Below, piece after piece: positions 12,869-61,446 of a stretch of DNA of 64,000 nt. The stretch comes from an uncultured Gemmatimonadaceae bacterium (lineage in GTDB: Bacteria > Gemmatimonadota > Gemmatimonadetes > Gemmatimonadales > GWC2-71-9): assembly GCA_964596925.1 (NCBI GenBank), contig CAZQWQ010000072.1, positions 576,305 to 640,304 of the forward strand, written 5' to 3'. The notes under the pieces were generated by a model. It had not been told where the DNA came from. It saw only the letters and a program-made list of their open reading frames with translations, and did not search any database. Position 1 is the stretch's first letter, and each line of letters starts with the position of its first letter. The position numbers and the translations under genes were made by a program.

Positions 12869-12908
12869 CGCCCTGGTTGGGGAACGGGACGTGAGTCTGG
12901 GAAAACGC

Positions 12909-23882: not shown

Positions 23883-24167
23883 ATGACAGCCCAAACGGCA
23901 CGAACCCTAGTACCGGCCGTACGCGAATCCGTCGTCCACGATCTTCCCCCCATACGGTTTGAAGGACAAAGTGTCGTCGTTCGCCTCACGGTACGACGCG
24001 CCGAGGATGGTGTGTGGCGCGGCCGGATCCTGTTTGGGGCGGAGGAGACCGAACACGAGCGGACCACGGCCGAGATCTTCTGCGCCGTCTCGGAACAGGA
24101 CCTGTGGTTGTCGGTCCGGGACCTGCGGGACCATCACCTCCGCGATCTGTACCGCTCGCTGCTCTAG
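23883..24167 (+). CDS. hypothetical 94-aa protein
   Basis: ATG start and balanced, non-shadow-like composition ('RFEGQSVVVRLTVRRAEDGVWRGRILFGAEETEHERTTAEIFCAVSEQDLW'). I recognise no family. Confidence 0.5.
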   Translation: MTAQTARTLVPAVRESVVHDLPPIRFEGQSVVVRLTVRRAEDGVWRGRILFGAEETEHERTTAEIFCAVSEQDLWLSVRDLRDHHLRDLYRSLL

Positions 24168-24258
24168 TATGCCCGAGGTCTCCGACCGGCTGTGAGCCGG
24201 CGGCACCGCTTGCGGTTTTGCCATCCATCACGGTGGTGGTTGCGCCTCCGGCGGACGA

Positions 24259-26070
24259 TTACGATCGAGCCGTGGTGTTGGCCGCGGCGTGCCCACTAAG
24301 CAGATAGAGCACCAGCAGCACCGCCGAGGCGCCGCTGACGGCAAATTTCAGGACCGCCGGGGCATCACTCGTGGAGAGCAGCCCTTCGATCGCCCCGGCA
24401 ATGGCCAGCAGGAACACCACGGCGCCGACCATGCGCATCGCAATGCGACCGTCCACGACGAGAGCGTCCAGGCGAGTGCGGTCGCCAGGGGCGATCAGGG
24501 CGTGCGCGAGCCGAAACCCCGCGCCCCCGGAGATGAAAATGGCCGTCAGCTCCAGCACGCCATGCGCGGCCACGAACGTGGCGAGGTAGCCAGCCGCGTG
24601 ATAGTTGGCGAACACGCCGAACCCAGTCCCGATGGCCAGGCCGTTGAACACCAGGGCCCACACCGTCAACACTCCCGCTAGCATACCGCCCGCGAACGCC
24701 ATGATGCACACGCGAATGTTGTTCGAGATGATCACCGCGGCGATCACGGGCCGCTCCCCGCTTTCCACCCGAGCGTAGCCCACCCCCTCCGCCTGTCGTT
24801 CCGCCGCCTGTTCCGCCCGGCTGACCATCACGGGCGACACGATCTCCTCAGCGAGCTGCGGCCGTTCCCGCAACATCACGTAGCCGATCACGGCCGGAAC
24901 CATGAACAGCAGGAACGACGCCAGCACGTAGCGCCACGATTCGACGACCGCCGCCGGGAAGTCGTGCAACAGATGGTGGGAGAACGGTGCGCGGCGTGTC
25001 GCACGCGCCTGGTACAGCGCGTTGTGCCCCGCCCCCACGAGGCGCTCGAGGTACGCCACCACCTGCGGGTCGACGCCGTAGGTGCGCGCCCGGGCGAGGT
25101 CCGCCGCGACTTCGCGGTAGCGTGCGGCGAACCCGGGGATCTCGGCGGCGGGAAGCCGGGCGAGCCCGCCTTTCTCGAGCTGCTGCGCGGCGGCGCGGAA
25201 CGCTTCCCAGGCGTCCCGTTTGCGGGCCAGGAACCGCTCACCGGTGACAGTCGTGCGCCCGGCAGAGCCCGTGGCCCGGGTCGCAAAGCGGCCGCGACGC
25301 TTTTGCTGCTCGTCGGCGAACACTGTGGTGAGGTACGCATCGGCGTCCGCGTCTCGTCTGGGGATGCGCGGCTCGAATCGGTGTGACAGCTCGGTGGTGA
25401 GCCGGTTGCGCACCGCCGGGGCGAGCTCGTGGGCCCGCGCGAGGAAACGGTCGAGCAGCTGGAACTCCTGGTCGGTGAGTTCGGGAGGGCCAAGCTCGAG
25501 CGCCTCGGTCGGCATCGGGGGCGGTGCGGGTGCCAAGCTCCAGGCGGCGACCCGATCGCGTACGACAATCGTCCCGGCCGCGAGATCACCGAGCCGCTTG
25601 TTGGCGGGGTGCAGGAACACCAACAGGCTCCCGGGGAGCGGTCCCAACGGCACTAGGAAATCGATGATGCGGATGAGATTCCGCACGGTCGCCGCGTTCG
25701 CCGTGACGGACCGTCCCGTGTCGAGCACCACGCGGATCCCGAGCGCGCGCTTCCCCGGCGTCCGGCCGTCCCCCAGCGCCTCGAACAGCGCGTAGTAAAG
25801 GAAGAAACCCAGCCCCAGGACGAGGACGACGATGGCCGTGCCCCAGCTGCCCAGGGCGGACGACCATGCTGCCCCGACACGAGCCACGGCGAAGAACAGC
25901 GCCATTCCCGTGTAGACGCAGAACAAGATCAGGAGATCGATCGCCGCGGCCGCGGCGCGCGTGCCGAGTCCGGCGAGCTCGAACGACAGCACTACGTGCT
26001 CGGGAGTCTCGACACCGTGCTGCTGGCGCAGGTCGAAGGCGTGGCGTGGGACTCGCGCGGGGGCGCTCAC
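24259..26070 (-). CDS. fusion membrane protein: N-terminal RDD domain plus C-terminal SpoIIM/DUF95-like domain
   Basis: RDD motifs 'RAAAAAIDLLILF' and 'GRTPGKRALGIRVV'. The C-terminal 'IISNNIRVCIMAFAGGMLAGVLTVWALVFNGLAIG' is typical of the stage II sporulation protein M family. Confidence 0.8.
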   Translation of the reverse strand: MSAPARVPRHAFDLRQQHGVETPEHVVLSFELAGLGTRAAAAAIDLLILFCVYTGMALFFAVARVGAAWSSALGSWGTAIVVLVLGLGFFLYYALFEALGDGRTPGKRALGIRVVLDTGRSVTANAATVRNLIRIIDFLVPLGPLPGSLLVFLHPANKRLGDLAAGTIVVRDRVAAWSLAPAPPPMPTEALELGPPELTDQEFQLLDRFLARAHELAPAVRNRLTTELSHRFEPRIPRRDADADAYLTTVFADEQQKRRGRFATRATGSAGRTTVTGERFLARKRDAWEAFRAAAQQLEKGGLARLPAAEIPGFAARYREVAADLARARTYGVDPQVVAYLERLVGAGHNALYQARATRRAPFSHHLLHDFPAAVVESWRYVLASFLLFMVPAVIGYVMLRERPQLAEEIVSPVMVSRAEQAAERQAEGVGYARVESGERPVIAAVIISNNIRVCIMAFAGGMLAGVLTVWALVFNGLAIGTGFGVFANYHAAGYLATFVAAHGVLELTAIFISGGAGFRLAHALIAPGDRTRLDALVVDGRIAMRMVGAVVFLLAIAGAIEGLLSTSDAPAVLKFAVSGASAVLLVLYLLSGHAAANTTARS

Positions 26071-26111
26071 GTCCTCATCTTATCGCCACCCCCCGCTCAT
26101 GAGCGAGGCCT

Positions 26112-26999
26112 ATGGCGGATTTGCGGCCGATGGAATTCGGGGAAATCCTGGACGGCGCGTTGTCGCTGTTCCGGCGCCACTTCCGGCTGTTTCTCAAGCT
26201 GAGCCTGACGGTGATGTGGCTCCCGATCGCCATCTTGCTCTACTGGCGCATTCGATTCATCGGCCTGCAGGGCACCCCCGAACAGGCGGCCGCCCTGCTC
26301 ATGGCGGATATCGTCCCGTTCGTGCTGTGGATCTTGATGTTTGCCGTCGTCTACGGGTTTGGGGTGTTGCTGCTCACCGCCGGATCGATCCGCATCATCT
26401 CCGATTCCTACCTCGGTCGCGAACCCAAGTTCGCGGACGCCCTCGCGTTCGGTTTCAGCAAGATCGTCCCCCTGTTTCTCGTAGGCGTCGGGAAATCGCT
26501 GCTCCTGATGCTGGTGCTCATCCTGGGTGCGGTGGTGATTGGCGTCAGTGCGGCCTTGGGCAAGGTCCTGGGTGTCGGCATCGCGATCCTCATCACCCTG
26601 GCGGCGTTTGCCGGCACTTGCTGGCTCGTGCTGTTCGTCGCGAGCGGCTACATGGTGACGACGCCGGTCGTCGTGCTCGAATCGCTGCCGTCCGCGTTCG
26701 ACTCGTTCGCCCGGTCCTGGGAGCTCACCCGCGCGGCCAAGCGCAAAGTGTTCGGCCTCGTGTTCGTCGGCTACCTGCTCGCCAGCCTGCTGCCGTCGAT
26801 CGTCCTGTCGGTCGTGGGCGAGCTGGTGAAGGAAGTCGTTCCCGCCGGCCTGCTGCCTTGGACGGTCGTCTCGGCGGCGGTGCCGATCCTGCTGGCGCCC
26901 ATGATCCCTTGCATCCTCACCCTCGCCTATTACGACCTCCGGGTACGGAGAGAGGGCTTCGACCTCCAACTGCTGGGCGAGCAGCTGGGGATCTCGTGA
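26112..26999 (+). CDS. polytopic membrane protein (about 6 TM; resembles GDPD-membrane-domain/DUF975-like proteins)
   Basis: ATG start. Long hydrophobic helices ('LSLTVMWLPIAILLYW', 'IVPFVLWILMFAVVYGFGVLLL' and others). The antisense 552-aa ORF is Arg/His/Pro nonsense. Confidence 0.7.
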   Translation: MADLRPMEFGEILDGALSLFRRHFRLFLKLSLTVMWLPIAILLYWRIRFIGLQGTPEQAAALLMADIVPFVLWILMFAVVYGFGVLLLTAGSIRIISDSYLGREPKFADALAFGFSKIVPLFLVGVGKSLLLMLVLILGAVVIGVSAALGKVLGVGIAILITLAAFAGTCWLVLFVASGYMVTTPVVVLESLPSAFDSFARSWELTRAAKRKVFGLVFVGYLLASLLPSIVLSVVGELVKEVVPAGLLPWTVVSAAVPILLAPMIPCILTLAYYDLRVRREGFDLQLLGEQLGIS

Positions 27000-27053
27000 G
27001 CGCGGTGCCCGAGCCGCTCCGGGCGTGATGGTTGCCTGCCGGAGTGGTGCAGC

Positions 27054-27683
27054 GTGATTTCCGTGCTGCTGCAGCAGGCCGTGCCATCCGATTCGTTGCG
27101 TCGCGCCGTCGAGGAGGTGTTCGCCCGGCCTGAGTACGGCTGGGCGCCAGGCGGCCAGCCGCTGCACCTCCTGCGCGACCTCTGGTCCCGGTTGGTGGAG
27201 TGGCTGAATCGGTTCGGCGCGGAGCATCCCCTCGGCTTCCGGTTGCTGTTTTGGGGGGCGGTCCTGCTGCTCGTGGCGTTGCTCGTGCACCTCGGGTGGC
27301 TCGGGTGGCGCATCTACCGATCCACCGTCGAGCGTCCGCCCGTGTCGGCACCGGGCGCTCCGTTGCTGGTCGATGCGCGGGGCCACCTGCAGCATGCCGA
27401 GGCGCTGGCCCGCGCCGGACGGTACACCGAGGCATTGGCGCATCGCTTCCTGGCGTTGCTGCTCGAGCTGGATCGCGCCGACGCCGTGACTTTCCATCCG
27501 TCGAAGACGCCCGCCGAATACGTGAACGAAGCGCGTCTCGGTGCAACCGGCCGCGACTCGCTCGCCGGGCTCGTGGCGCGACTGTACCACCACGTCTTCG
27601 GGGCAGAGCCGTGCGACGAGCGGTGCTACCGCGACTTCGGCGCGACGGCCGGGACTGTGCTGCAGCATGTCGCACCGCACTGA
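27054..27683 (+). CDS. DUF4129-like protein
   Basis: N-terminal TM 'FRLLFWGAVLLLVALLVHLGWL'. The C-terminal 'AEALARAGRYTEALAHRFLALLLELDR...FHPSKTPAEY' pattern is typical of DUF4129, which co-occurs with MoxR/DUF58. Confidence 0.7.
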   Translation: MISVLLQQAVPSDSLRRAVEEVFARPEYGWAPGGQPLHLLRDLWSRLVEWLNRFGAEHPLGFRLLFWGAVLLLVALLVHLGWLGWRIYRSTVERPPVSAPGAPLLVDARGHLQHAEALARAGRYTEALAHRFLALLLELDRADAVTFHPSKTPAEYVNEARLGATGRDSLAGLVARLYHHVFGAEPCDERCYRDFGATAGTVLQHVAPH

Positions 27684-28944
27684 GCTGGGCCTCGCGCTAT
27701 TGCTTGCCCTCGCGCTCACGGTGGCGCTGCTCGCGGGCCGGCGCCACCAGCGCACAGCCGAGGCGGAGGAGCCGGTTTCGACGTACTACAGCGGTCCGAC
27801 GGGCGGTCGCGGTCCCTACGACGTGCTGGCCCGCCTCGGCGTGCCGGTGGAGCGGCGTCGCACGACCCTGTTCGACCTGGGGCGGCAAGTTCGACGACAG
27901 CCCGCCGTACTGGTGGTCGTTGCTCCGTCGCGCTGGTTGGCCCCAGCCGAGCGCGAGGCCGTGGCCCAGTACATCGCTGGGGGAGGCGCCCTCGTGGCCG
28001 TGGGCGATGCAGGCGGAATGACCCAATGCCTGGGGTGGGACACGGCCACGCCGGACTCGGCCGATCTCGCTCGGCAGGACAGCGTGGCCGTGACGGCACC
28101 GGCGGGACTCGCCCGGCTGCCAGGGGTCAGCTGGGTACTGCAGTCCATTGAGCAGGACACCCTGGAAGGGGTCACCAAGCGCGCCGCGGAGCTGCGCAAG
28201 CTGGGGCGTGCCGGCGGCCTGATACGCGAGGACGGCGAGTGCGAATCAACGGTCCACGTGGCGACCGATACGCTGCTCGCGACGGTGCAGGGTGAGCCGG
28301 TGGTGGTCCGGTTGCGATACCGGGGCGGCGGTCGCGCGTTGTTGGTTTCCGAGGACGACTATTTCCGCAACCGCGCCTGGCGGGACACCGATGTACCCGG
28401 GCTGCTGGTGCCACTCATCGTGCCGGAGACGCGCGGCCGGGTGAGCTGGGACGAGTATCACCATGGCCATGGCGCGGAGGGTTCGCTCACGCGTGCGGCG
28501 CTGGCGTGGATGGCGCGCTCGCCCGTCGGGTGGGTGCTATGGCAGCTCGTGGCGGTCGCGCTCGTCTGGCTCGTGGTGACGGCGGTACGCTTCGGCCCGC
28601 CGCGACCGGTGATCGACCGCCGGCGCCGCTCGCCGCTCGAGCATCTCGAAGCCCTGGCCGCGGGACTCGAAGGCGCAGCGGGGGTGGAGACCGCCGTCGC
28701 GCTCACGGTGTCCGGCCTGCGGCGCCGCCTGTCGCGCACCGGCCAGCTGCCGCGTGGCGACGCCCGGCAATGGCTTGGCGCGCTCGAGCTGGCCCTACCC
28801 GGCGCGCGCGGCCGTCGCGCCGCGCGCCGCTTGCAGGATATGCTGACCAAACCCGGCGGGTCCGAGCGCGTGCTCGGGGTCGCCCAAGCCGTGGAGGACG
28901 TGTGGGAGGAATTGCGTCCGCGGGCGAAGCCCGCCGCATCGTAG
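27667..28944 (+). CDS. DUF4350-like protein
   Basis: The internal ATG (residue 43 of the track ORF) gives the signal/TM 'MSHRTELGLALLLALALTVALLAG'. 'YYSGPTGGRGPYDVLARLGVPVE' and a C-terminal TM are present. It overlaps the DUF4129 stop by 17 nt. Confidence 0.7.
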   Translation: MSHRTELGLALLLALALTVALLAGRRHQRTAEAEEPVSTYYSGPTGGRGPYDVLARLGVPVERRRTTLFDLGRQVRRQPAVLVVVAPSRWLAPAEREAVAQYIAGGGALVAVGDAGGMTQCLGWDTATPDSADLARQDSVAVTAPAGLARLPGVSWVLQSIEQDTLEGVTKRAAELRKLGRAGGLIREDGECESTVHVATDTLLATVQGEPVVVRLRYRGGGRALLVSEDDYFRNRAWRDTDVPGLLVPLIVPETRGRVSWDEYHHGHGAEGSLTRAALAWMARSPVGWVLWQLVAVALVWLVVTAVRFGPPRPVIDRRRRSPLEHLEALAAGLEGAAGVETAVALTVSGLRRRLSRTGQLPRGDARQWLGALELALPGARGRRAARRLQDMLTKPGGSERVLGVAQAVEDVWEELRPRAKPAAS

Positions 28945-29858
28945 ACGCCCTGAACCGGGTGGTGCTTGGCCAGGAGGCCGCGACTCGGGAGGTGCTCGTC
29001 GCCCTGCTGGCCCGCGGCCACGTCCTGCTCGAGGGCGTGCCGGGGACCGCCAAGACCCTGCTCGTCCGCACACTGGCGCTGGCGCTCGACGTCCGGTTCC
29101 AGCGCATCCAGTTCACCCCCGACCTCATGCCCGCGGACATCACCGGCGTCTCGATGCTCGCTGCGTCGCACGACTTCACCTTCCGGCCCGGGCCGATCTT
29201 CGCGGACCTGGTGCTGGCAGACGAGATCAACCGGGCCCCCGCCAAGACGCAAGCCGCGCTGCTCGAGGCGATGCAGGAGCGCACGGTCACGGTGGACGGC
29301 GTGAGTCATCCCCTGTCCGACGTGTTCACGGTCTTCGCGACCCAGAACCCGATCGAGTTCGAGGGCACCTACCCCCTGCCCGAGGCGGAGCTGGACCGCT
29401 TCATGATGAAGGTGCTGTTCGGCTACCCCGCCGCCGCACTGGAGCAAGGGATCCTGACTCGGTACGTCGAGGGCTTCGAAGCGGACCGGCCGGCCACCTA
29501 CGGGGTGTCCAAGGTGACGGACGGAGCGGGACTCTCTGCCCTCCGGGGGGCGGTGGAGGGCGTGCGAGTCGAGACGCAGATCACCGCCTACATCACGGCC
29601 ATCGTGCGCGCCACGCGCGATGCCGCCTCCCTCACCCTCGGCGCCAGCCCGCGGGCCGGCGTGTCGCTGCTCAAGGCGGCGCGGGCCTCGGCGCTACTCG
29701 ATGGACGCGACTACGTCATTCCCGATGATGTCAAAGCCCTCGCCCCGGCGGTGCTGCGCCACCGCGTGAACGTCGCCCCCGAGCTCGAGCTCGAAGGCGT
29801 CAGCGCCGACGTGGCCTTGAAGGCGATCCTCGACAAGACCGAGGTGCCCACCGCGTGA
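28902..29858 (+). CDS. MoxR-family AAA+ ATPase
   Basis: GTG at residue 133 of the track ORF. 'VVLGQEAATREVLVALLARGHVLLEGVPGTAKT' (Walker A), 'LADEINRAPAKTQAALLEAMQE' (Walker B/sensor) and 'FTVFATQNPIEFEGTYPLPEAELDRF' are present. Confidence 0.9.
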   Translation: MGGIASAGEARRIVDALNRVVLGQEAATREVLVALLARGHVLLEGVPGTAKTLLVRTLALALDVRFQRIQFTPDLMPADITGVSMLAASHDFTFRPGPIFADLVLADEINRAPAKTQAALLEAMQERTVTVDGVSHPLSDVFTVFATQNPIEFEGTYPLPEAELDRFMMKVLFGYPAAALEQGILTRYVEGFEADRPATYGVSKVTDGAGLSALRGAVEGVRVETQITAYITAIVRATRDAASLTLGASPRAGVSLLKAARASALLDGRDYVIPDDVKALAPAVLRHRVNVAPELELEGVSADVALKAILDKTEVPTA

Positions 29859-31177
29859 TCCTCCCGACGCGGCGCTTCCTGTGGATCGCGGCCGCGCTGG
29901 CGGGTCTCGGCCTCCTCGGCGTCTGGGTCGAGTGGGCGCTCGACGTGATGCTGCTGGCGGATGCGGGGCTCCTGGCCCTGGTCCTGGCGGACGCGGTGCG
30001 CGCACCGGCGGTCGGCGCCGCCGCCGCGGTGCAGCCGGAGCGCGACGCGCCGCCCGCGTTTTCGATGGGCCACGCCGTCGAGGTCACCTACATCTGGCGA
30101 AACTCGTCGCGCCACGCGGCGCGCCTGCGGGTGCGGGAGGTGCGCCCCGAGCTATTGGGTGGTCTCCAGCGTCCTCGCGCGCTCGTCGTACCCCCGGGCG
30201 GCGAATGGCGCGAGCGGCTGGCCGTGGGACCGGTGCGGCGCGGCTACGAAACCGGCGGTGCGCTGACGGTGGACACCATCGGGCCGCTCGGGTTGGGGTT
30301 GCGCCGGTCGACGCATGCCTTGCCGTGGGAGGTGCGCGTGTATCCCGCACTCACCACGCTGCGGCGTCGCGCCGCGGTGGCCCAGGCGCTGCGACGCCGC
30401 GAACAGGGACGCCAACCGCTGCGCCGACTCGGCGAGGGACGGCTGTTCGAGTCGCTGCGCGACTTCGTGCCAGGCGACGATCCGCGCCACATCGATTGGA
30501 AGGCGACGGCGCGGCGCCGCAAGGTGATCACGCGGCAGTTCGAGGCCGAACGGCGCCAGCACGTGTTGCTGGTTCTCGATGCCGGGCGCCTGCTCACCGC
30601 CGACGTCGCGGGCACGGCGCGGATGGACTACGTGGTGCAGGCGGCGCTGGAGCTCGCCTACGCGGCCGCACAGCACGATGACAACGTCGGCGTGATGGTG
30701 TTTGCCGACGGCGTGCGGCATTTCGTGGCGCCGCAGCGCGGGCGTCGCGGTCTGAAGCAGGTGCTCGACGTGCTGTCGGAGGTGACCCCGACCCTCGTCG
30801 AGCCCGATTACCCCGGTGCGTTTCGCTATCTCGCGGCGCGCAACCGCAAGCGCGCGCTCACGGTGGTGTTCACCGATGTGATTGACCGGTTTGCGTCGGA
30901 GGCGCTGGTCGCGAACCTCGTCACGCTACGGCCGCGGCACCTCCCGCTCGCCGTGACGCTGCGCAACCCGGAGCTCGACGCGATCGCTACGCAGCGGCCC
31001 GCCGAGGTGCGGGACGCGTGGCGCAAAGCGGCGGCGGAAGAGCTGCTGCGGGCGCGCGAGGAGGCGCTGTCGCACATGCGCCGCGCGGGCGTGCTGGTGC
31101 TGGACGTGCCGCCGGCCCGTGCGGCCGAGGCCGTCGTGGATACGTACGTGGAACTCAAACGGCGTGGGCGATTGTGA
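29855..31177 (+). CDS. DUF58 protein (vWA-like partner of MoxR)
   Basis: GTGA overlap with the MoxR stop. Two N-terminal TM helices. 'LRDFVPGDDPRHIDWKATARRRKVITRQFE' is the DUF58 signature. A vWA-like 'VLLVLDAGRLL' is present. Confidence 0.85.
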   Translation: MILPTRRFLWIAAALAGLGLLGVWVEWALDVMLLADAGLLALVLADAVRAPAVGAAAAVQPERDAPPAFSMGHAVEVTYIWRNSSRHAARLRVREVRPELLGGLQRPRALVVPPGGEWRERLAVGPVRRGYETGGALTVDTIGPLGLGLRRSTHALPWEVRVYPALTTLRRRAAVAQALRRREQGRQPLRRLGEGRLFESLRDFVPGDDPRHIDWKATARRRKVITRQFEAERRQHVLLVLDAGRLLTADVAGTARMDYVVQAALELAYAAAQHDDNVGVMVFADGVRHFVAPQRGRRGLKQVLDVLSEVTPTLVEPDYPGAFRYLAARNRKRALTVVFTDVIDRFASEALVANLVTLRPRHLPLAVTLRNPELDAIATQRPAEVRDAWRKAAAEELLRAREEALSHMRRAGVLVLDVPPARAAEAVVDTYVELKRRGRL

Positions 31178-31241
31178 TCTAAGCTGGCGAGGAAACCCGT
31201 TGGCTTCTATGTTGCTAGACCACCTGCTGACGGGAATGGTC

Positions 31242-32996
31242 ATGCGTTTCTACGCCCGATGGATCACCGCCGGCGCCGTTCTGGCGGCGGCCGTCGTCGC
31301 CTGTTCCGTGCCCACCGACAAGACCCAGGACATCCAGGTCGTCGTCCGGCTCTCGGATTCTCTGCAATCGCGAGGGATCCTGGGGCAGGGACTGCGCGAC
31401 TCGGTGCATGCGTTTGCCTTCCGGCTCGGCGCGTCAGGGGAAACACTCGCGGTGACCAACAGCGGGTTTCAGTGGACGTCGAGCGATCCGACGATCGCGA
31501 CCGTGGAGGGCCTGCCGACCGGTTGGGCGATCGTGACCGGGCTGGCGCCGGGGTCGGTCGCCTTTACAGCGCGACCGATCGCCTACGAGGACGCGCCGAG
31601 TGGTGCGCTGAGCGTCCGGGTGGCGACCCGGTTCGTGATCGACAGCGTACGACCCAGTCTCGTCCACTACGGCGACAAGGTGACGGTGTATGGCGTCGGG
31701 GTGAACCAGCTGTTCTCCCTCACGCTGGGCGCTGACCTGTTCCCCGATTTCTTCTCGTTCCAGGGCAACCCGGACGGTCTCAGCTCGGAGCAGTGGTGGG
31801 TGCCCTATCCGACGTCGAGCGGGTTGCCGTTCTTCATCGGCCCCGGTGTATTTGGCTTCGACACTGTCCCGGTCGCAGTGGTGGACAGCGATCTGTTCGA
31901 GCCCGACTCGGCCGCGCCGGCGCCGGTGATCGCCACCGGGGCAGGGGGGCCGCGCACGTTCGCCGGTCTCCCGGCGCTGTATTTCAACCCGGCGCTGTAT
32001 TTCGAGCCGGTGGATTTCACCCTGCCGCGCATCAACCTGCCGGTTGACTGGCTCCGCTTCGCCATCTCGGACTCGACGCAGCCGATTTCGTTCGTGGTGA
32101 CGTCCACCGTCTTCAGTGATACCGTCGCGGCGTTCACCTATATCGGGGACTCCGTCGAATACAACACGTGCCCCGGCCTCTACTGCGTCGGCCCGACGTC
32201 GAAGATCATCTTTCCGGGCACGCAGTGGATCTGCAACGGGAATTTCTTCGGCTCGAACGGCATTCGGCTGCCGCAGGTAACGGTGGCCTTCAAGAACTCG
32301 ATCTCCTTGAATCCGCAATTCATTTCGTTCTACTCGACTCCGGGCCGCTACGAGGTGGCCGTCGTGCGCGGGTACCTATCCCGCCTGCCACCCGATCGCT
32401 TTGAGGAGAACGACTTGTGGTGCGTCGATGTGGACAGCGCCTTCACTCAGTCGCCGGATTCCAACCCGAACTCACGCACCGCGAAACACATCGTGATCGG
32501 CCGCTCGGCGTTCGGCCAGAACGGCTTCTGGTTCGACTCGACGTTGACCATCGACAACCCAGGGGACGCGGACTTCATCCGCTTCCGTGTGCAACCGCCG
32601 GCGTTCGTGGGCGATACGTTCGTCACGATCCAAATCAAGGCGCGCCCGTTCGGGGTAATCGATCCGTCCGACATCGATCTCTACGTGATGCGGGTGAGCG
32701 ATTTCGCGTTCATGACCGCTTCGGTGAATGTGGGCTCGGACGATTCCGTGACGCTGAACCTGCCGCCGGATGACTATTATCTCGCCGTCGTGGATTTTGC
32801 GCAGCAACAGACCCGGTATGCGGTCTGCATCGTCAAGGGCTTCGGGTGTATCCCCCCCGGCGCGCCGCCGCGCCTGACGCGCGCTCCAGCGGTGAACCGG
32901 CTCCCACGCCGGGACCCCCACCGGGATCCACGCGTGCCGCCTGCGAACCTGCCGTTCCATATGCCGTTGGGGAGGGCTCCATCGCCGCCCCGGTGA
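31242..32996 (+). CDS. lipoprotein with a Big_2 Ig-like domain and a pre-peptidase C-terminal (PPC)-like domain
   Basis: 'MRFYARWITAGAVLAAAVVAC' is a lipobox. 'FQWTSSDPTIATVEGLPTGWAIVTGLAPGSVAFTARP' is Big_2. 'GDADFIRFRV...DIDLYVM...DDYYLAVVDF' is PPC-like. Alternative ATG starts are at 31209 and 31236. Confidence 0.7.
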   Translation: MRFYARWITAGAVLAAAVVACSVPTDKTQDIQVVVRLSDSLQSRGILGQGLRDSVHAFAFRLGASGETLAVTNSGFQWTSSDPTIATVEGLPTGWAIVTGLAPGSVAFTARPIAYEDAPSGALSVRVATRFVIDSVRPSLVHYGDKVTVYGVGVNQLFSLTLGADLFPDFFSFQGNPDGLSSEQWWVPYPTSSGLPFFIGPGVFGFDTVPVAVVDSDLFEPDSAAPAPVIATGAGGPRTFAGLPALYFNPALYFEPVDFTLPRINLPVDWLRFAISDSTQPISFVVTSTVFSDTVAAFTYIGDSVEYNTCPGLYCVGPTSKIIFPGTQWICNGNFFGSNGIRLPQVTVAFKNSISLNPQFISFYSTPGRYEVAVVRGYLSRLPPDRFEENDLWCVDVDSAFTQSPDSNPNSRTAKHIVIGRSAFGQNGFWFDSTLTIDNPGDADFIRFRVQPPAFVGDTFVTIQIKARPFGVIDPSDIDLYVMRVSDFAFMTASVNVGSDDSVTLNLPPDDYYLAVVDFAQQQTRYAVCIVKGFGCIPPGAPPRLTRAPAVNRLPRRDPHRDPRVPPANLPFHMPLGRAPSPPR

Positions 32997-34696
32997 CGCA
33001 GTGCGTCAAATGTCAGGCATCGTTGCCCGATAACAGCCGGTTCTGCTTCGCCTGCGGAGCCGACCAGACGGGTGGCGGGGGCGAGGCCGGCTCCGCGAGC
33101 GTGATCGAGAACCTCCAGAACCGGCTGCAGCGCCTCGTGCAAGGCAAGTACCAGATCAAGCGGCTGCTCGGCAAGGGCGGCATGGGCGCGGTGTTCCTGG
33201 CCGACGACCTCACGCTCGATCGGGAGGTGGCGATCAAGGTCCTGCCGCCCGACTTCTCGAGCGACCCCCAGGTGATCAAACGGTTTCAGCAGGAAGCGAA
33301 GACGGCGGCCAAGCTCGACCACGTGAATATCATCCCGATCTACCGGGTCGAGAGCGATGAAGGCCTCAACTACTTCGTCATGAAGTTCATCTCCGGCACG
33401 TCGCTCGAGGACTTACTGGATTCGAAACAGGAAATCTCCTACGACTACGCCCAGCGGATCCTGTGGGAGGCCGCCTGCGCGCTGGGTCACGCGCATTCGC
33501 GCGGGGTGGTGCATCGCGACGTGAAGCCGGCCAACATCATGTTCGACCACGACGGCAAGGTGATGCTCACCGACTTCGGCATCGGCAAGCTGCTCCAGTC
33601 GGCGACCGGGCTCACCGGCACGGGGATGATTATCGGTACGCCGCACTACATGGCTCCGGAGCAGGCCAAAGGCCAGCCGGTGGACGGACGCGCCGACCAG
33701 TATTCCCTGGGCGTCGTGGGCTATCGCCTGCTCTCGGGCTCGCTGCCGTTCAGCGGCGACTCGGTGCACACCATCCTCTACAAACACATCTTCGAGGAGG
33801 CCCCGCGGCTCTCGGGGCTACGGCAGAACGCGCCCAAATTCCTGACCGATCCGATCCAGCGCGCGTTGTCCAAGGAGCCTGCGCAGCGCTTCCCTACCAT
33901 GGAAGACTTCGCGTCGGCGCTCTGGCCGGAGCAACCGGTGTCGGCCACGGGGAAGGCGACGCCGAAACCCGCCCGCCAGGCTCCCGGCGCGCGCGGCCCG
34001 GTCACCGCCGACACACCGACCGAGCACGTCCGCGACGCCTCCGGCGCCTCCGCGCCTACCACGCCGTTGCCGTCGGCGGTGCGGCCACGCACCGCTCCGC
34101 ACCACGAGACGCGTCCCGCGAAGAAGTCCTCGTCCAAGGTGGGAGTGTTCGCCCTGGTCGCCGTCGCGGCCGTCGGTGCGGGGGGGTACGTCGTCATGCG
34201 TGGCGGTGGTGGCGGAGGGTCGCCGCAGAACGCCGCCGCGATCGAACCATCGCCGGTGCCCGCGCCGCCCGCCGGCCAGCAGAGCGTGGCCGTCACGCCG
34301 GAATCGACCGCGACGCCGCCTGCCGTGACGCCGTCCGTCACGCCAACTCCAGCGCCGATCGAACCCGCGGCTCCGCCCCGACAGACGACCCGGCCACCAC
34401 AGCAGCGGCCGACGCCCTCGCGGCCGCGGCAGCAACAGCCGGTGGAACAACCACCGCCCGTGCAGCAGCCGGCGGTGGAGGAATGGGGATACCTGTCGAT
34501 CAACGCCAACCCGTTCGGTACCGTCTTCATCGACGGCGTGAATGTGGGCGACACCCCAATCGACCGGCACCGCGTGAGGCCCGGCCCGCACACGATTCGC
34601 ATCGAGAACCCAGGCTACAAGACGCTCACCGAACGCGTGCAGATCGATCCCGGCAACACGATCCGTAAGACCTACCCACTGGTTCCGGAGGGATGA
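32993..34696 (+). CDS. Hanks-type Ser/Thr protein kinase with an N-terminal zinc ribbon, one TM helix and a C-terminal PEGA domain
   Basis: GTG in a GTGA overlap with the upstream stop. 'CVKC...FCFACG' is a zinc ribbon. Kinase motifs 'GKGGMGAV', 'VAIKVL', 'HRDVKPANIM', 'DFGI' and 'GTPHYMAPE' are present. TM 'VGVFALVAVAAVGAGGYVVM'. The PEGA region is 'GYLSINANPFGTVFIDGVNVGDTP...HTIRIENPGYKT'. Confidence 0.85.
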   Translation: MTQCVKCQASLPDNSRFCFACGADQTGGGGEAGSASVIENLQNRLQRLVQGKYQIKRLLGKGGMGAVFLADDLTLDREVAIKVLPPDFSSDPQVIKRFQQEAKTAAKLDHVNIIPIYRVESDEGLNYFVMKFISGTSLEDLLDSKQEISYDYAQRILWEAACALGHAHSRGVVHRDVKPANIMFDHDGKVMLTDFGIGKLLQSATGLTGTGMIIGTPHYMAPEQAKGQPVDGRADQYSLGVVGYRLLSGSLPFSGDSVHTILYKHIFEEAPRLSGLRQNAPKFLTDPIQRALSKEPAQRFPTMEDFASALWPEQPVSATGKATPKPARQAPGARGPVTADTPTEHVRDASGASAPTTPLPSAVRPRTAPHHETRPAKKSSSKVGVFALVAVAAVGAGGYVVMRGGGGGGSPQNAAAIEPSPVPAPPAGQQSVAVTPESTATPPAVTPSVTPTPAPIEPAAPPRQTTRPPQQRPTPSRPRQQQPVEQPPPVQQPAVEEWGYLSINANPFGTVFIDGVNVGDTPIDRHRVRPGPHTIRIENPGYKTLTERVQIDPGNTIRKTYPLVPEG

Positions 34697-35745
34697 GGCC
34701 GATGCGCCGCATACAATTCGCGCTGGTCGCGCTGGTCGTGTCGTTCGGGCCCGTGGCGCTCTCCGCGCAGCAGGCCGTCCAGAGCGCCATGCTGCAGCGG
34801 GCGATTCGAGCGTACGAGGTGCCGGATTTCCAACAGGTGATCATCCTGGCGCGGACGGCGCTCCGAGAGCGACTGTCCGCCGCCGAGCGTGCGCGGGCCT
34901 ACGAGCTGCTGGGGTTCGCGTTCAGCGCGACCAGCCAGCCCGATTCCGCGATTTCGGCCTTCCGCGATGCGATTCAGCTCGACCCCGACCGCCAGCTCGA
35001 TCCGCGTCGTACGTCGCCCCGCATCGCCGGGTACTTCAACGCGGCGCTCGGTCAGGTGCTGGTCGTACGGCAGCTCAAGGTGGACACCACGCGATTCGTC
35101 ACCGGCACCCAGGGCGGCGGGGTCCCGATCCGTTTCACCGTCACCGTTCCAGCGCGCGTACGCACCCGGGCGGTAAGCGGCCAACACACCCTGCTGATCG
35201 ACTCGAGCATCGTGGCCGGGACGCTCAACCTCCGCTGGACTGGCCTCCTCGCGAACGGGGATCCGGTCCCGCCCGGAAGGTGGACGATCCTCGTCGAGGC
35301 CACTGGGGCCGGGCAGAATACCCACTCGGCCTCGCAAGAGGTGCAGGTCACCGTGGGCGCGGTGGACACCTTGCCGCACTTGAGCGCGCTGCCCGGCTAC
35401 ACCACGCTCCCCGAGACCGAGATCCCACCCCAGAGCGGCCGGCCGCTGGGGATCGCGCTGCTTTACACCGGTATCGCCGGCGCCGGCGCCCTGGCGCTCA
35501 ACAACGGCGACCTTGGCACTGCCACTGGGCGCGAGATAGGCGTCGTCGCGGCCGCCGCGCTGATCACGGGATTCGTCATGACGTTGAAGAAGCCGGCGCC
35601 GCGTCCGGCGTTGGGCAACATCCAGTACAACCGCCTGCTGCAGGAGCAGCTGGCCCGGCGCAACACCGACATCGCGCAACAGAACGCCCAGCTGCGCCGC
35701 CAGGTGCAGATCACCGTCGTGCCGGTTGCCAGGGGGACCCGATGA
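34693..35745 (+). CDS. secreted/membrane protein with an N-terminal TPR-like region, an Ig-like (FlgD-Ig-type) middle and two C-terminal TM helices
   Basis: ATGA overlap with the kinase stop. Signal 'FALVALVVSFGPVALSAQ'. 'AYELLGFAFSATSQPDSAISAFRDAIQLDP' is TPR-like. TM segments are 'LGIALLYTGIAGAGALAL' and 'GVVAAAALITGFVM'. Confidence 0.65.
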   Translation: MRPMRRIQFALVALVVSFGPVALSAQQAVQSAMLQRAIRAYEVPDFQQVIILARTALRERLSAAERARAYELLGFAFSATSQPDSAISAFRDAIQLDPDRQLDPRRTSPRIAGYFNAALGQVLVVRQLKVDTTRFVTGTQGGGVPIRFTVTVPARVRTRAVSGQHTLLIDSSIVAGTLNLRWTGLLANGDPVPPGRWTILVEATGAGQNTHSASQEVQVTVGAVDTLPHLSALPGYTTLPETEIPPQSGRPLGIALLYTGIAGAGALALNNGDLGTATGREIGVVAAAALITGFVMTLKKPAPRPALGNIQYNRLLQEQLARRNTDIAQQNAQLRRQVQITVVPVARGTR

Positions 35746-36374
35746 GACGCACCATCATGCTCAGCGGACTGCTGCTCGTCGGCGGCGTCACCGCCCGCGC
35801 CCAGACGGTGAGCCTGGGCGTCCACGGCGCCCTCGGTGACTACCGCGAGGTGTCGTCGAATCTTCACTACCGTGGCGCAGGCGGAGGGCTGTCGCTGTGG
35901 CTGCGGGTCTACCGGTTCAGCGCGGAAGCCACCGCGACGCGGGTCAGCTACGACCCGCGGGACGACAACAGCGGGCTGACGAGCTTCGAGGCCACGCAGA
36001 TCGACGCCCGCGTCGGGTTCGATGTCGCGGCCGGCTTCACGGCCGAAATCGGTCTGCTGCGCCGCACCATCAGCCCCGAGCTCGCCGCGCAGGAAATGGG
36101 CGCGGCGCGCATCGGCGTGCGCTACTCCAAATTGATCGGCCCCGGCACCACGGTGGCGCTGCGTGGCAATTACCTGGCCGGCGCTGAATTCACCGGCAAG
36201 GGATCGGCGGGGTTGGCGTTCGAGCTCGGACTGCTCGTCTCGACCGGACCGGTCAACGGCCGGTACCGTTTGACGGGGGACTACGGCTTCCAACGGATCG
36301 ACCGCAAAGTCGGCGGCCAGCCAGTGCCGATCCAGCAATCGCTGGTGCGGGTGGGGGTGGCGGTGGGGTTCTAA
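35742..36374 (+). CDS. small outer-membrane beta-barrel protein
   Basis: ATGA overlap with the upstream stop. Signal 'MRRTIMLSGLLLVGGVTARAQ'. Alternating beta-strand pattern with a terminal '...VGVAVGF'. Confidence 0.7.
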   Translation: MRRTIMLSGLLLVGGVTARAQTVSLGVHGALGDYREVSSNLHYRGAGGGLSLWLRVYRFSAEATATRVSYDPRDDNSGLTSFEATQIDARVGFDVAAGFTAEIGLLRRTISPELAAQEMGAARIGVRYSKLIGPGTTVALRGNYLAGAEFTGKGSAGLAFELGLLVSTGPVNGRYRLTGDYGFQRIDRKVGGQPVPIQQSLVRVGVAVGF

Positions 36375-36382
36375 GAAGCTGT

Positions 36383-36413
36383 CAGCCGTCAACCATCAGA
36401 TAGCTGACGGCTG
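36383..36413 (+). terminator. hairpin downstream of the OM-barrel gene (possible terminator; also a copy of a short repeat)
   Basis: CAGCCGTCA / TGACGGCTG is a 9-bp perfect stem with a 13-nt loop, 9 nt after the stop. The downstream T-tract is weak. Confidence 0.35.
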
Positions 36414-36437
36414 CCTCTGCAGTAGATTTGTCCTTCC

Positions 36438-37787
36438 ATGCATGCCTATCCTCAAGGCCACGTCTTTTACCGTCGGCTGACGAAGTCCTTTCCGCGCATC
36501 GTGCGCGGCGAAGGCTGTTGGCTCGAAGACGCCGACGGCAAGCGGTACCTCGACGCGGTGGGGGGCGCCTTCGTCGCGTCGCTCGGGCACGGAAACCACG
36601 AGATCGCCGACGCGCTGGCCGACCAGGCGCGGCAGGTGGCCTACGTGAACGGCACCGCGTTCACGACCGAGCCAGCTGAAGCGCTGGCGGCGGAGTTAGC
36701 CCCGACGCTCCCCGGCGACTTGAGCCACCTGTATTTCCTCTCGAGCGGCTCTGAAGCGGTAGAAGCGGCGCTGAAGCTCGCACGTCAATACTGGGTCGAA
36801 CGGGGCGCTCCGCGGAAGCACAAGATCATCGCGTTGTCTCCGGCGTATCACGGCAACACGCTGCTGGCGCTCTCGGCGTCGGCACGCGAGCACTACCAGG
36901 CCGTTTTCCAAAGCTGGCTCGTGGACGTGGTGCGCGTGCCCGTTCCCTGCTATCGCTGCTCGTGCGGCGGGGATGATGCGAGCTGCCTTACCTGTACCGG
37001 TGCGGCGCTCGAGGAAGCCATCGTCCAGGCCGGAGCCGACACCGTCGCCGCGTTCATCGCCGAGCCCGTGGGCGGATCCTCTACCGGGGCGGCGGTGCCG
37101 CGACCCGACTACTTCCGGGTCGTCCGCGAAGTGTGCGATCGCCACGAGGTGCTGTTCATCGCGGACGAGGTGCTGTGCGGCGCAGGACGGACCGGGACGT
37201 GGTGGGCGATCGAGCGGTTCGGCGTGGCGCCCGACCTCATGACCATCGGCAAAGGCATCGCGGGTGGCTACGCTCCCCTCTCCGGGGTGGCGGCCCCGCG
37301 GCGCATCGTCGATGTGCTGGCTGAAGGATCGGGAGCGCTGCTCCATGCCCAGACTTTCTCCTTCCATCCGGTCGCGTGCGCTGCCGGGCTCGCCACGGTG
37401 CGGGCGCTGAAAGCGCGCAAGCTGGCGCAGCGATGCGCCGAGCTGGGCGATCTGCTGCACGCGAAGCTCGCAGGGCTCGTGGGTCTCCCGCACGTGGGTG
37501 CGGTGCGCGGCCGCGGGCTGTTGGCGGGCGTCGAGTTCGTGAACGACACGAAGACCGGCGCACCGCTGCCGCGGGCCCTGCGCTTTGCCGAGACCTTTGC
37601 CGAGCAGGCGCTCGCCTCTGGTCTCGTCGTCTGGCCCAACGTCGGGCACGTCGACGGCCGCAACGGGGACCTCGCGATGCTGGCGCCGCCCTTCATCGTG
37701 ACCGAGGAGGAGCTGGACGAGCTCGTCGCACGCTTTGCCGCGGCCCTGGACCGCACGCTCTCGACGCTCGCCGCCGGGGTGGCATGA
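36438..37787 (+). CDS. class-III (omega) aminotransferase
   Basis: 'GEGCWLEDADGKRYLDAVGGAFVASLGHGN', 'FIAEPVGGS' and 'IADEVLCGAGRTGTWWA' are PLP fold-type I class III motifs. Confidence 0.9.
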   Translation: MHAYPQGHVFYRRLTKSFPRIVRGEGCWLEDADGKRYLDAVGGAFVASLGHGNHEIADALADQARQVAYVNGTAFTTEPAEALAAELAPTLPGDLSHLYFLSSGSEAVEAALKLARQYWVERGAPRKHKIIALSPAYHGNTLLALSASAREHYQAVFQSWLVDVVRVPVPCYRCSCGGDDASCLTCTGAALEEAIVQAGADTVAAFIAEPVGGSSTGAAVPRPDYFRVVREVCDRHEVLFIADEVLCGAGRTGTWWAIERFGVAPDLMTIGKGIAGGYAPLSGVAAPRRIVDVLAEGSGALLHAQTFSFHPVACAAGLATVRALKARKLAQRCAELGDLLHAKLAGLVGLPHVGAVRGRGLLAGVEFVNDTKTGAPLPRALRFAETFAEQALASGLVVWPNVGHVDGRNGDLAMLAPPFIVTEEELDELVARFAAALDRTLSTLAAGVA

Positions 37788-59601: not shown

Positions 59602-59678
59602 CAGCTCGCCGCCTTAACCGACTCCATCGCATTACGGGCAGCTTATGTCAAACTGCGGCACGAATTGGGAATGTGGAA

Positions 59679-59752
59679 TGCGCCAGACGGGATTCGAACC
59701 CATGACCTTCGGCTCCGGAGGCCGACGCTCTATCCAGCTGAGCTACTGGCGC
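59679..59752 (-). tRNA. tRNA-Arg (anticodon CCG)
   Basis: Hand-folded cloverleaf: GCGCCAG/CTGGCGC acceptor, GCTC/GAGC D-stem, TCGGC-CTCCGGA-GCCGA anticodon arm, TTCGAAT T-loop. No encoded CCA. Confidence 0.9.
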
Positions 59753-59813
59753 AGGAAAGCAGTGAAACGAAGGTAACGGCGAACGACCTCACACTCCAGT
59801 CGCCGCACTGGTG

Positions 59814-61169: not shown

Positions 61170-61190
61170 GTGAACGTCCTGAGACTTCGT

Positions 61191-61267
<77 letters not shown>

Positions 61268-61272
61268 AGAGG

Positions 61273-61356
61273 CTAGACGCCCAGACGCCAAGACGTCCAG
61301 TCGCCTAGGTACTACAGGCTGCTCACTCCTAGGCGTCTCGGCGTCTGCACGTCTAG
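61273..61356. repeat. AGACGC-unit palindromic element, copy A (tRNA spacer)
   Basis: CTAGACGC-C-CAGACGC-CA-AGACGTC...CGCCTAGG [loop] CCTAGGCG...GCGTCTG-CAC-GTCTAG. The arms are imperfect reverse complements. Confidence 0.6.
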
Positions 61357-61370
61357 GCGTCCAGCAGTGA

Positions 61371-61444
<74 letters not shown>

Positions 61445-61446
61445 GA

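Follow-up and report, generated by a model that had tools for sequence, protein, structure and literature searches.

A conserved four-gene cluster of Gemmatimonadales pairs a hypervariable lipoprotein gene with a predicted PEGA-domain Ser/Thr kinase next to a MoxR/DUF58 block

Four genes on the plus strand, at positions 31242-36374 of the window (the whole stretch of 64,000 nucleotides analysed here), encode a predicted lipoprotein, a zinc-ribbon Hanks kinase with a PEGA domain, a TPR/Ig membrane protein (protein H) and a predicted 10-stranded outer-membrane (OM) barrel. They lie directly 3′ of a MoxR/DUF58 block. The four genes co-occur in 64 of the 64 loci that have enough DNA, all of them from Gemmatimonadales, and none of these loci had room for all four while missing one. 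Our preferred reading, held tentatively and with slightly less than even confidence, is that they encode an envelope-spanning receptor-kinase system with its own promoter-like element, to which the MoxR module would be a non-obligatory partner. As part of this best explanation, and with the same reserve, 31242-36374 is most likely a self-contained operon specific to Gemmatimonadales. The features of the region are as follows.

24259..26070, minus strand, divergent: polytopic membrane protein with RDD (E=9e-19) and SpoIIM (E=4e-32), first gene of the MoxR block
26112..26999, plus strand: polytopic membrane protein with several hydrophobic segments; no Pfam match in the window protein, weak DUF7847 in relatives
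27054..27683, plus strand: DUF4129 protein (Pfam E=3e-6) with one TM segment at 58-88
27667..28944, plus strand: DUF4350 protein (Pfam E=3e-9) with an N-terminal signal/TM and a C-terminal TM
28959..29858, plus strand: MoxR-type AAA+ ATPase (AAA_3 E=3e-61, AAA_lid_2); start at GTG 28902 or GTG 28959
29855..31177, plus strand: DUF58/vWA-like protein with N-terminal TM helices (DUF58 E=6e-33, VWA_2 E=1.5e-6); 4-nt overlap with the MoxR stop
31184..31214, plus strand: conserved promoter-like motif CTGGC-N19-TATGTTG, inside the 64-nt spacer between the DUF58 stop (31177) and ATG 31242
31242..32996, plus strand: predicted hypervariable lipoprotein of Big_2-like, IPT-like and PPC-like beta-sandwiches (lipobox Cys21; Big_2/PPC matches in the family)
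32993..34696, plus strand: zinc ribbon, Hanks Ser/Thr kinase, TM and PEGA in one protein (Pfam domains, motifs, topology)
34693..35745, plus strand: protein H, with signal peptide, TPR-like and Ig-like parts, two hydrophobic helices and a conserved C-terminal helix (AF2, Pfam)
35742..36374, plus strand: predicted OM beta-barrel, 10 strands, 210 aa (AF2 pLDDT 87.9; Foldseek; C-terminal Phe)
36377..36412, plus strand: stem-loop just 3′ of the barrel stop, candidate operon end (-21.2 kcal/mol, z=-2.69)

The genes of the operon are joined by 4-nt overlaps (GTGA 32993-32996, ATGA 34693-34696 and ATGA 35742-35745), all of which a preliminary description of this DNA had reported, and relatives keep the tight packing through 1-4-nt overlaps or short gaps. 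That description had also counted nine co-directional genes over 26112-36374 with no gap above about 65 nt. This was borne out: the widest gaps are 54 nt, between the gene at 26112..26999 and the DUF4129 gene, and 64 nt, between the DUF58 and lipoprotein genes. Its start of the block at 31209 has to be moved, as this ATG falls inside an invariant non-coding motif and homologues align from ATG 31242. The public gene call for the lipoprotein likewise begins at ATG 31209. At the 3′ end, the stem-loop has no U-tract and was not flagged by the terminator scan.

The kinase contains a Hanks domain (PF00069; Pkinase E=1e-48, 166 bits against a cut-off of 31.7) with intact catalytic motifs (VAIK79, HRD174, DFG194 and APE221) and a PEGA domain (PF08308) at residues 498-565 (E=6e-15, 55.5 bits against 20.8). 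A single hydrophobic segment (382-404) is bordered by linkers of 18% and 29% proline. The layout first described for this protein is therefore recovered, with the zinc ribbon falling just short of threshold (Zn_Ribbon_1, 24.4 bits, cut-off 25). Basic residues on the kinase side of the lone TM suggest that PEGA would sit outside.

For protein H, the AF2 model (pLDDT 74.6) comprises a signal helix, five TPR-like helices, an Ig sandwich and a C-terminal helix, and the Pfam matches are a weak TPR in the window protein and FlgD_ig in relatives. The signal, TPR-like and Ig-like parts proposed earlier are thus seen in the model, while the two hydrophobic helices appear at low confidence (pLDDT about 45-55). 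The 210-aa OM barrel, also proposed earlier, is supported by the 10 strands of its AF2 model and by Foldseek, whose best PDB matches are NspA, OpcA and Pla/OmpT (E~1e-6), every top match being an OM barrel. Phe is the C-terminal residue in at least 90% of sequences and so nearly invariant. The barrel protein matches no Pfam family.

The lipoprotein gene stands apart by its variation. Its signal peptide ends in a lipobox (MRFYARWITAGAVLAAAVVAC, followed by S), and Cys21 of this lipobox is invariant across 15 homologues with identity down to 34%. Of the Big_2/PPC lipoprotein named in the preliminary description, the lipid-attachment signal stands; in the window protein, Big_2 gives a weak match under the cut-off (E=9e-4) and PPC, present in 9 of 15 family members, is undetected. 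Between the window and locus L001, the lipoproteins share 53% amino-acid identity and the flanking genes 86-98%. Nucleotide identity drops from 90-97% to 54-70% solely across the lipoprotein gene, and the divergent segment is bounded by its start codon and a point ~35 nt before the kinase GTG. Substitution rates follow the same pattern (dS 1.27 and dN 0.39, against dS 0.18-0.31 and dN 0.01-0.05 in the flanks). The kinase, its PEGA domain, H and the barrel maintain 94-96% identity. The lipoprotein falls into 24 allele classes at >=60% identity, compared with 16 for H at >=75%. Between genomes, the lipoprotein gene is replaced as an allelic cassette.

Transcription of the operon may be directed from the spacer in front of this gene. 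The motif found there has the consensus CT(G/A)GC-N19-TAnnTT(G/C); 36 of 38 diverse loci share one spacing, and the T, A, T and T of TAnnTT are invariant. It occurs once in the 64-kb window, where 0.04 matches are expected, and all 43 matches in 1.35 Mb stand 5′ of a lipoprotein gene. Loci without DUF58 (L015, L022-24 and L089) carry it as well, in L015 after a terminator-like hairpin. Since the motif is operon-specific and is kept in loci that lack DUF58, independent transcription of the four genes is probably possible. A consensus promoter scan did not flag the motif, whose -35-like part agrees with TTGACA at 3 of 6 positions, and it could be a regulator binding site instead of a promoter. 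A search for consensus RNA structure in the motif region returned none. The preliminary description had named a promoter or terminator at this junction, combined with absent synteny in relatives, as refuting its linkage, and the outcome at the junction is divided: no terminator was found between the DUF58 and lipoprotein genes, in favour of linkage, while the conserved promoter-like motif weakens the idea of a single nine-gene unit.

The cluster is a diderm variation on a known kind of kinase-MoxR/DUF58 grouping; its function we infer. The linkage, undescribed according to the preliminary description, has precedents in the PFNA operon (PMC8430577) and the Esr pathway (bioRxiv 10.64898/2026.09.08.750141). 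The bifidobacterial PFNA operon reads pkb2-fn3-aaa-atp[MoxR]-duf58-tgm, with prpC and fha optional (PMC8430577, PMC6803598); its genes were shown experimentally to be co-transcribed and MoxR to be a substrate of Pkb2 (PMC8430577). In both cases MoxR and DUF58 are encoded together with a membrane Ser/Thr kinase that has an extracytoplasmic part and with a secreted protein of Ig-like fold, and genes differ strongly between species, although here the lipoprotein alone is hypervariable while MoxR and DUF58 are conserved. PFNA belongs to monoderm hosts and has another gene order (here MoxR-DUF58-lipoprotein-kinase). Its surface protein is FN3 rather than Big_2/PPC, and it includes a transglutaminase, where the present cluster has only a separate DUF4129 protein. 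The OM barrel, lipoprotein, PEGA, DUF4350 and RDD/SpoIIM found here are absent from PFNA. We do not assign the cluster to PFNA: the kinase, MoxR and DUF58 are present, but FN3 and transglutaminase gave no match and the order differs.

The Esr (epibiont sensing and response) pathway of Actinomycetes combines a variable surface sensor, which triggers kinase-dependent phosphorylation, with MoxR, vWA and kinase, and is effectively confined to Actinomycetes according to its authors (bioRxiv 10.64898/2026.09.08.750141). The pattern of a variable sensor and a conserved transducer recurs here. EsrA, however, consists of a beta-propeller carried by 14 Ig repeats, and Esr cannot do without a transglutaminase, a phosphatase and an FHA protein for its output; beta-propeller, TGase, PP2C and FHA domains were found neither in the cluster nor in the ~10 kb checked to each side of it, and the lack of phosphatase and FHA genes there counts against the receptor-kinase reading. 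Of the full Esr set, only MoxR, the vWA-like DUF58 and the kinase are present, and membership was rejected. In logic alone, the cluster also recalls the Rcs system. In Enterobacteria, an OM lipoprotein and a barrel (RcsF-OMP) report to IgaA, an inner-membrane protein with a periplasmic domain, which controls a kinase cascade. The analogy involves no kinship of sequence or fold, Rcs being a His-Asp phosphorelay in contrast to the Hanks kinase here, and RcsF is small and conserved, unlike the hypervariable lipoprotein. Lastly, the DUF4350 (arCOG01314)-MoxR-vWA neighbourhood, mainly of archaea, was predicted to form a secretion or membrane-remodelling complex and has associated S-layer proteins of the arCOG02884 type (Makarova et al. 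2015, PMC5898192). The window shares this grouping: one predicted operon holds DUF4350, an ATPase of COG0714 and a vWA protein, co-encoded with membrane and Ig-like-domain proteins. In the passages considered, no kinase, OM barrel or lipoprotein is named for that neighbourhood, and archaea have no outer membrane.

In the receptor-kinase reading that we prefer, the recognition subunit would be the hypervariable OM lipoprotein with its Ig-like and PPC-like beta-sandwiches. The 10-stranded barrel could be its OM anchor or its partner, and H, through a membrane hairpin, might form a periplasmic bridge. The zinc-ribbon Hanks kinase, with PEGA in the periplasm, would carry the signal to cytoplasmic substrates. 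By analogy with PFNA and Esr, the RDD/SpoIIM-DUF4129-DUF4350-MoxR-DUF58 membrane module, directly upstream in most lineages, may partner the kinase or serve as its substrate, in a linkage that is not obligatory. The localisations proposed in the preliminary description (barrel and lipoprotein at the OM, TPR/Ig protein and PEGA in the periplasm, kinase in the cytoplasm) are predicted and fit such an envelope-spanning complex. A bolder version, which we consider improbable, would make the cluster a diderm counterpart of Esr/PFNA threat sensing: the swappable lipoprotein would detect phage, epibiont, predator or kin, the barrel, TPR/Ig adaptor and PEGA kinase would relay the signal, and MoxR-DUF58 would act in the same cascade.

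The MoxR block lies directly 5′ of the lipoprotein gene in 52 of 74 classifiable loci. In these 52, the spacer after DUF58 is near-constant (about 64-70 nt) and the ten genes from RDD/SpoIIM to the barrel are contiguous across differing flanks (at least two upstream and at least four downstream contexts); the RDD/SpoIIM gene is found in every class-1 locus. Conserved synteny, on which the initial proposal was to be judged, is therefore present. Such constancy, with the terminator-free junction, favours the view that the nine co-directional genes make up a single operon and a single machine, in which the kinase regulates the MoxR/DUF58 module or is assembled by it. So do the phosphorylation of MoxR by Pkb2 in PFNA (PMC8430577) and the Esr model, in which the signal passes via MoxR and vWA to the kinase (bioRxiv 10.64898/2026.09.08.750141). 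Lipoprotein hyperdiversity, too, is confined to lineages with an adjoining MoxR block (132 of 191 pairs there, 0 of the 30 pairs without it), a correlation drawn from few clades. On the other hand, the remaining 22 loci have no MoxR block within the up to 10 kb upstream that was judged, so coupling of the kinase to MoxR may be absent or in trans. Four of these loci (L022-24 and L089) share the Rho-M50 site, where the block is cleanly missing between the M50 and lipoprotein genes. These 22 loci and the operon-specific motif, which accompanies the lipoprotein gene even in loci without DUF58, weaken the single nine-gene unit of the preliminary description, and we regard it as unlikely.

The same separability, and the possession of a motif by the four genes, would suit modules that are unrelated and neighbours by ancestry only. 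The operon would then be a structural system of the surface or envelope (e.g. for adhesion or tethering), with the lipoprotein hypervariable as a target of phages or predators and the kinase only tuning expression or assembly. PEGA, Big_2 and PPC are typical of surface and S-layer proteins, and the allelic lineages are deep, with saturated dS; lineages of this kind resemble those of surface antigens or receptors. We nevertheless find this account quite unlikely, given that contiguity with the MoxR block survives where all other synteny has decayed and that a catalytically intact receptor-type kinase is central in the operon, translationally coupled on both sides. Finally, the kinase matches PADLOC PD-T4-6 models (E=4e-104) and mad6, and MoxR faintly matches mad8, as might be expected if the kinase were part of an anti-phage system of the PD-T4-6, MADS or BREX-PglW type. 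The PD-T4-6 and mad6 models match any Hanks kinase domain, though, the other eight cluster proteins match no defence model save the faint mad8, and NCBIfam MADS6 and PglW scores lie far under their cut-offs. Furthermore, the locus is a stable, order-wide chromosomal operon by housekeeping genes and no variable island. A defence kinase was rejected on these grounds and is highly improbable.

MoxR-vWA/DUF58 pairs are very common and few have a known function; only lately has work on PFNA and Esr linked them to variable surface sensors that signal through Ser/Thr kinases. A phylum that is unrelated to Actinobacteria and has an outer membrane now shows the same grouping, built from different parts (lipoprotein, barrel and PEGA) and with an exchanged cassette as putative sensor gene. 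Were the diderm counterpart of Esr/PFNA true, a pathway so far regarded as limited to Actinomycetes would reach another phylum and envelope type. For diderms, the cluster offers a testable hypothesis on the role of MoxR-DUF58 modules. It also supplies a candidate polymorphic surface receptor from Gemmatimonadales, which are abundant in soil but little studied, and a defined cis element (31184-31214) for promoter studies in Gemmatimonadota.

Within the MoxR block, the ATPase belongs to the MRP subfamily, with AAA_3 at 205.6 bits, AAA_lid_2 at 79 bits and the DUF58 gene immediately 3′. It also scores 33.7 bits for bpMoxR (PF20030; cut-off 27), far under AAA_3, and the block holds no beta-propeller gene. 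The DUF58 protein (PF01882, 114 bits against 23.4) shows VLDAGRLL at the expected position of the MIDAS motif DxSxS.

The gene block lies in DNA of about 68% G+C. Nine plus-strand genes run from 26112 to 36374; the first five, together with a divergent gene ahead of them, form the MoxR block, and the last four (31242-36374) form the four-gene unit.

24259-26070, minus strand: RDD/SpoIIM membrane protein, divergent, preceding the nine-gene run
26112-26999, plus strand: polytopic membrane protein
27054-27683, plus strand: DUF4129 protein
27667-28944, plus strand: DUF4350 protein
ending at 29858, plus strand: MoxR AAA_3 ATPase
29855-31177, plus strand: DUF58/vWA-like protein
31208-31214: TATGTTG of the spacer motif, with CTGGC at 31184; 28 nt ahead of ATG 31242
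31242-32996, plus strand: lipoprotein, start from homologue alignment
32993-34696, plus strand: kinase
34693-35745, plus strand: protein H, 350 aa
35742-36374, plus strand: 210-aa barrel protein
36377-36412: stem-loop after the barrel-gene stop codon (z=-2.69)

The widest intergenic gaps in the run are 54 and 64 nt, and the GTGA, ATGA and ATGA overlaps joining the last four genes were found exactly where the preliminary description had placed them. Its account of gene layout and products also holds, with caveats on the Big_2 and PPC domains. No specific NCBIfam family was found for any of the ten cluster proteins. In the DUF58 protein (29855-31177), near 'VLLVLDAGRLL', the residues DAGRL occupy the position expected for the MIDAS DxSxS motif of the vWA-like fold, and the domain may lack the usual mode of metal binding.

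In public gene annotation the lipoprotein (595 aa) begins at ATG 31209, the same start as in the preliminary description. Homologues align from the methionine at 31242, and ATG 31209 sits within the invariant TAnnTT element of the non-coding spacer motif, where other genomes have no ATG. The start was therefore set at 31242, which leaves a 64-nt spacer behind DUF58; the deposited start is probably too long by 11 codons. The signal peptide terminates in VVAC, and the lipobox cysteine is invariant among homologues down to 34% identity. In the window protein Big_2 gives no more than a sub-threshold match, PPC is detected in nine of 15 family members, the window protein not being one of them, and a PDB sequence search with the family profile returned weak Big_2 (Lig protein) matches only.

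Beside this lipoprotein, the unit encodes a receptor-type kinase that is catalytically intact by its motifs (VAIK, HRD, DFG and APE), an outer-membrane barrel and conserved partner proteins. The kinase carries Pkinase (E=1e-48) and PEGA (E=6e-15) domains, a borderline Zn_Ribbon_1 match (24.4 bits, cut-off 25) and one hydrophobic segment (382-404) between linkers of 18% and 29% proline. A longer start at GTG 32846 was rejected: it would run into the hypervariable 3′ end of the lipoprotein gene, conservation in the alignment with locus L001, from a genome of about 92% nucleotide identity, restarts only ~35 nt before GTG 32993, and, counted from the latter codon, the zinc ribbon starts at residue 4. 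Compared with its L001 counterpart, the window kinase is nearly identical in the zinc ribbon (97%), kinase domain (95%) and PEGA domain (96%), and the periplasmic proline-rich linker is the sole region to drop, to 74%. In locus L089 the operon kinase (11650-13500) has an additional Big_2 domain ahead of PEGA. Extra Ser/Thr kinase genes lie immediately upstream of the operon in L052 (8325-9395) and ~1 kb downstream of it in L089 (16135-17448).

The AF2 model of H (pLDDT 74.6) comprises a signal helix, five TPR-like helices and an Ig sandwich, followed by two hydrophobic helices, both poorly resolved, and a C-terminal helix that is conserved; a Foldseek search with it gave nothing beyond generic Ig-like folds. 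The 210-aa protein is modelled with higher confidence (pLDDT 87.9) as a signal helix and a 10-stranded barrel. All its top PDB matches are outer-membrane barrels, e.g. NspA, OpcA and Pla/OmpT, and a C-terminal phenylalanine is nearly invariant among its homologues.

A scan in which each species was represented by one genome found relatives in at least 137 genomes, and the 80 loci listed from it all belong to Gemmatimonadales, Gemmatimonadaceae or Gemmatimonadota MAGs. Homologue searches gave 168 matches for the lipoprotein, 850 for H and 322 for the barrel, all named ones in Gemmatimonadota except a single "Frankiaceae" match to H, probably the result of a binning error. When the window proteins were searched by tblastn in every locus retrieved, all four genes were found together in 64 loci, and none with enough room misses one; the four genes therefore constitute an invariant unit. 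The MoxR block lies immediately upstream in 52 loci and is absent from 22, for which 1.5-10 kb of upstream DNA was available. Where it is present, the ten genes from RDD/SpoIIM to the barrel are contiguous despite differing flanks: Rho-M50 or CsgG-hypothetical-Big_1 upstream, and an aminotransferase, CO dehydrogenase, an epimerase/APH pair or an S41 peptidase downstream. Four loci (L022-L024 and L089) share the Rho-M50 flank of the window and cleanly miss the six MoxR-block genes; in other MoxR-less loci the unit comes after a histidine kinase, glutamate dehydrogenase or a second kinase.

This tightly coupled unit has its own conserved cis element. The spacer between DUF58 and the lipoprotein gene measures ~64-70 nt in most loci. 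With TAnnTT(G/C) used as the anchor, its T, A, T and T proved invariant in all 38 sequences, and CT(G/A)GC stood exactly 24 nt upstream in 36. The geometry is promoter-like (a hexamer, an 18-nt spacer and the TAnnTT element); its upstream part shares only three of six positions with TTGACA, which explains its absence from the consensus promoter scan. That scan found neither an intrinsic terminator nor a standard sigma-70 promoter between DUF58 and the lipoprotein gene. The 64-kb window holds one match to the motif against 0.04 expected, and all 43 matches in 1.35 Mb (window plus loci) lie 30-110 nt upstream of a lipoprotein gene. A general promoter consensus was rejected, as no match lies elsewhere in this 1.35 Mb. 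An RNA structure or attenuator was likewise rejected: RNAalifold on 22 anchored sequences gave no consensus pairs, and the single-sequence fold was not significant (z=-1.77). The motif is also found in loci without DUF58, and in L015 it stands immediately behind a terminator-like hairpin. We read it as a putative promoter, or promoter plus operator, that belongs to the four genes and is specific to their operon; transcription from the MoxR genes may also read through. A different conserved sequence, GGAGTCCGCCACAnGATGCCGGGATTTACCAGAG, lies ~60-70 nt ahead of the lipoprotein gene in nine MoxR-block-less loci of a Gemmatimonadaceae-type clade (L052, L055, L058, L061, L062, L063, L079, L084 and L086); an Rfam search with this element gave no match.

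The lipoprotein gene is exchanged between lineages while its partner proteins stay conserved. Between the window and L001, nine of the ten proteins are 86-98% identical and the lipoprotein only 53%. Nucleotide identity, 90-97% along the block, falls to 54-70% over the lipoprotein gene alone, beginning at its start codon and ending ~35 nt before the kinase GTG. By the Nei-Gojobori method dS is 1.27 and dN 0.39 for this gene, versus 0.18-0.31 and 0.01-0.05 for the flanking genes; L009, a locus with the window-type allele, gives flank-like values. With synonymous sites saturated, this is replacement by a deeply diverged allele and more than rapid protein evolution. In a comparison of 63 loci, lipoprotein identity ranges from 34% to 91% among pairs whose H proteins are 80-90% identical, there are 24 lipoprotein classes (at least 60% identity) versus 16 H classes (at least 75%), and in a few pairs the lipoproteins are more alike than their H proteins. 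A diversity-generating retroelement was rejected, since no template/variable repeat pair was found in 24000-38000; it is also disfavoured by divergence that covers the entire gene with saturated dS. Where two H proteins are at least 75% identical, their lipoproteins are less than 55% identical in 132 of 191 pairs when the MoxR block is adjacent in both and in 0 of 30 when both lack it, a suggestive tie drawn from few clades and confounded by phylogeny.

The observation in the preliminary description is confirmed and its interpretation partly supported; the statement that linkage of such a kinase to MoxR/DUF58 was undescribed is wrong, for two actinobacterial systems precede it. In Bifidobacterium, the PFNA operon brings together genes for Pkb2 (a Ser/Thr kinase), a surface protein with FN3, a MoxR ATPase, DUF58 and a transglutaminase. 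Co-transcription is known from B. longum, Pkb2 has MoxR as a substrate, and the genes diverge strongly among species (PMC8430577, PMC6803598). The Esr pathway of Actinomycetes, reported in a 2026 preprint, senses Saccharibacteria epibionts. It consists of EsrA, a surface protein divergent in sequence, together with MoxR, vWA, a transglutaminase, a kinase paired with a phosphatase, and an FHA protein; according to the preprint's authors, the pathway is effectively limited to Actinomycetes (bioRxiv 10.64898/2026.09.08.750141). By the prediction of Makarova et al. (PMC5898192), the DUF4350-MoxR-vWA neighbourhood with Ig-like surface proteins forms a secretion or membrane-remodelling complex. The Gemmatimonadales cluster likewise combines a variable surface protein, conserved MoxR, DUF58 and a membrane Ser/Thr kinase. 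It belongs to neither PFNA nor Esr: it contains no FN3 domain, beta-propeller or transglutaminase (DUF4129 only), and no phosphatase or FHA gene lies within ~10 kb either side. Beyond PFNA and Esr it adds the diderm-specific lipoprotein, barrel, PEGA domain and TPR/Ig protein. No published description of the four-gene unit was found. What is new here is that sensing clusters of the MoxR-vWA/Ser-Thr-kinase type have a diderm version, in which the lipoprotein gene is a hypervariable cassette and a defined motif is specific to the operon.

How the products might work together can be proposed tentatively. The lipoprotein would be located at the outer membrane or surface, given Ser at +2, its hypervariability and domains typical of surface proteins, and could be the subunit responsible for recognition. 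Its connection to the PEGA domain may run through the barrel and H, the kinase would phosphorylate cytoplasmic targets, and, if PFNA and Esr are taken as analogues, the MoxR-DUF58 module is perhaps a target or co-factor. We give this composite picture somewhat less than an even chance.

The MoxR block and the four-gene unit are separable, yet their adjacency outlasts general synteny by far. A fully integrated nine-gene machine, as proposed in the preliminary description, fits the persistent adjacency; the loci in which the unit lacks the MoxR block speak against it, and we consider it unlikely. Those same loci suit two unrelated neighbouring modules serving chiefly a structural or surface function, which the lasting adjacency speaks against and which we consider slightly less likely still. 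A defence kinase is very improbable: PADLOC and NCBIfam do return matches, but these are generic to the kinase domain, and anti-phage defence was rejected.

Elsewhere in the window, two giant minus-strand ORFs rich in Ala, Thr and Gly encode 2178 aa (47762-54298) and 1641 aa (54595-59520). The former starts with a lipobox-like LFVATC and consists of ~95-aa repeats, Ig-like in look ('LVFTxQPS...PAVVV.A.D..GN'), with no Pfam match; the many ~100-aa plus-strand ORFs over this region are probably antisense artefacts. Seven tRNA genes (Arg, Pro, Arg, Val, Met, Gly and Ala) cluster at 59678-61937 on the minus strand, and after them, at 62038-63108, comes a sigma-70 family factor that has regions 1.2 to 4.
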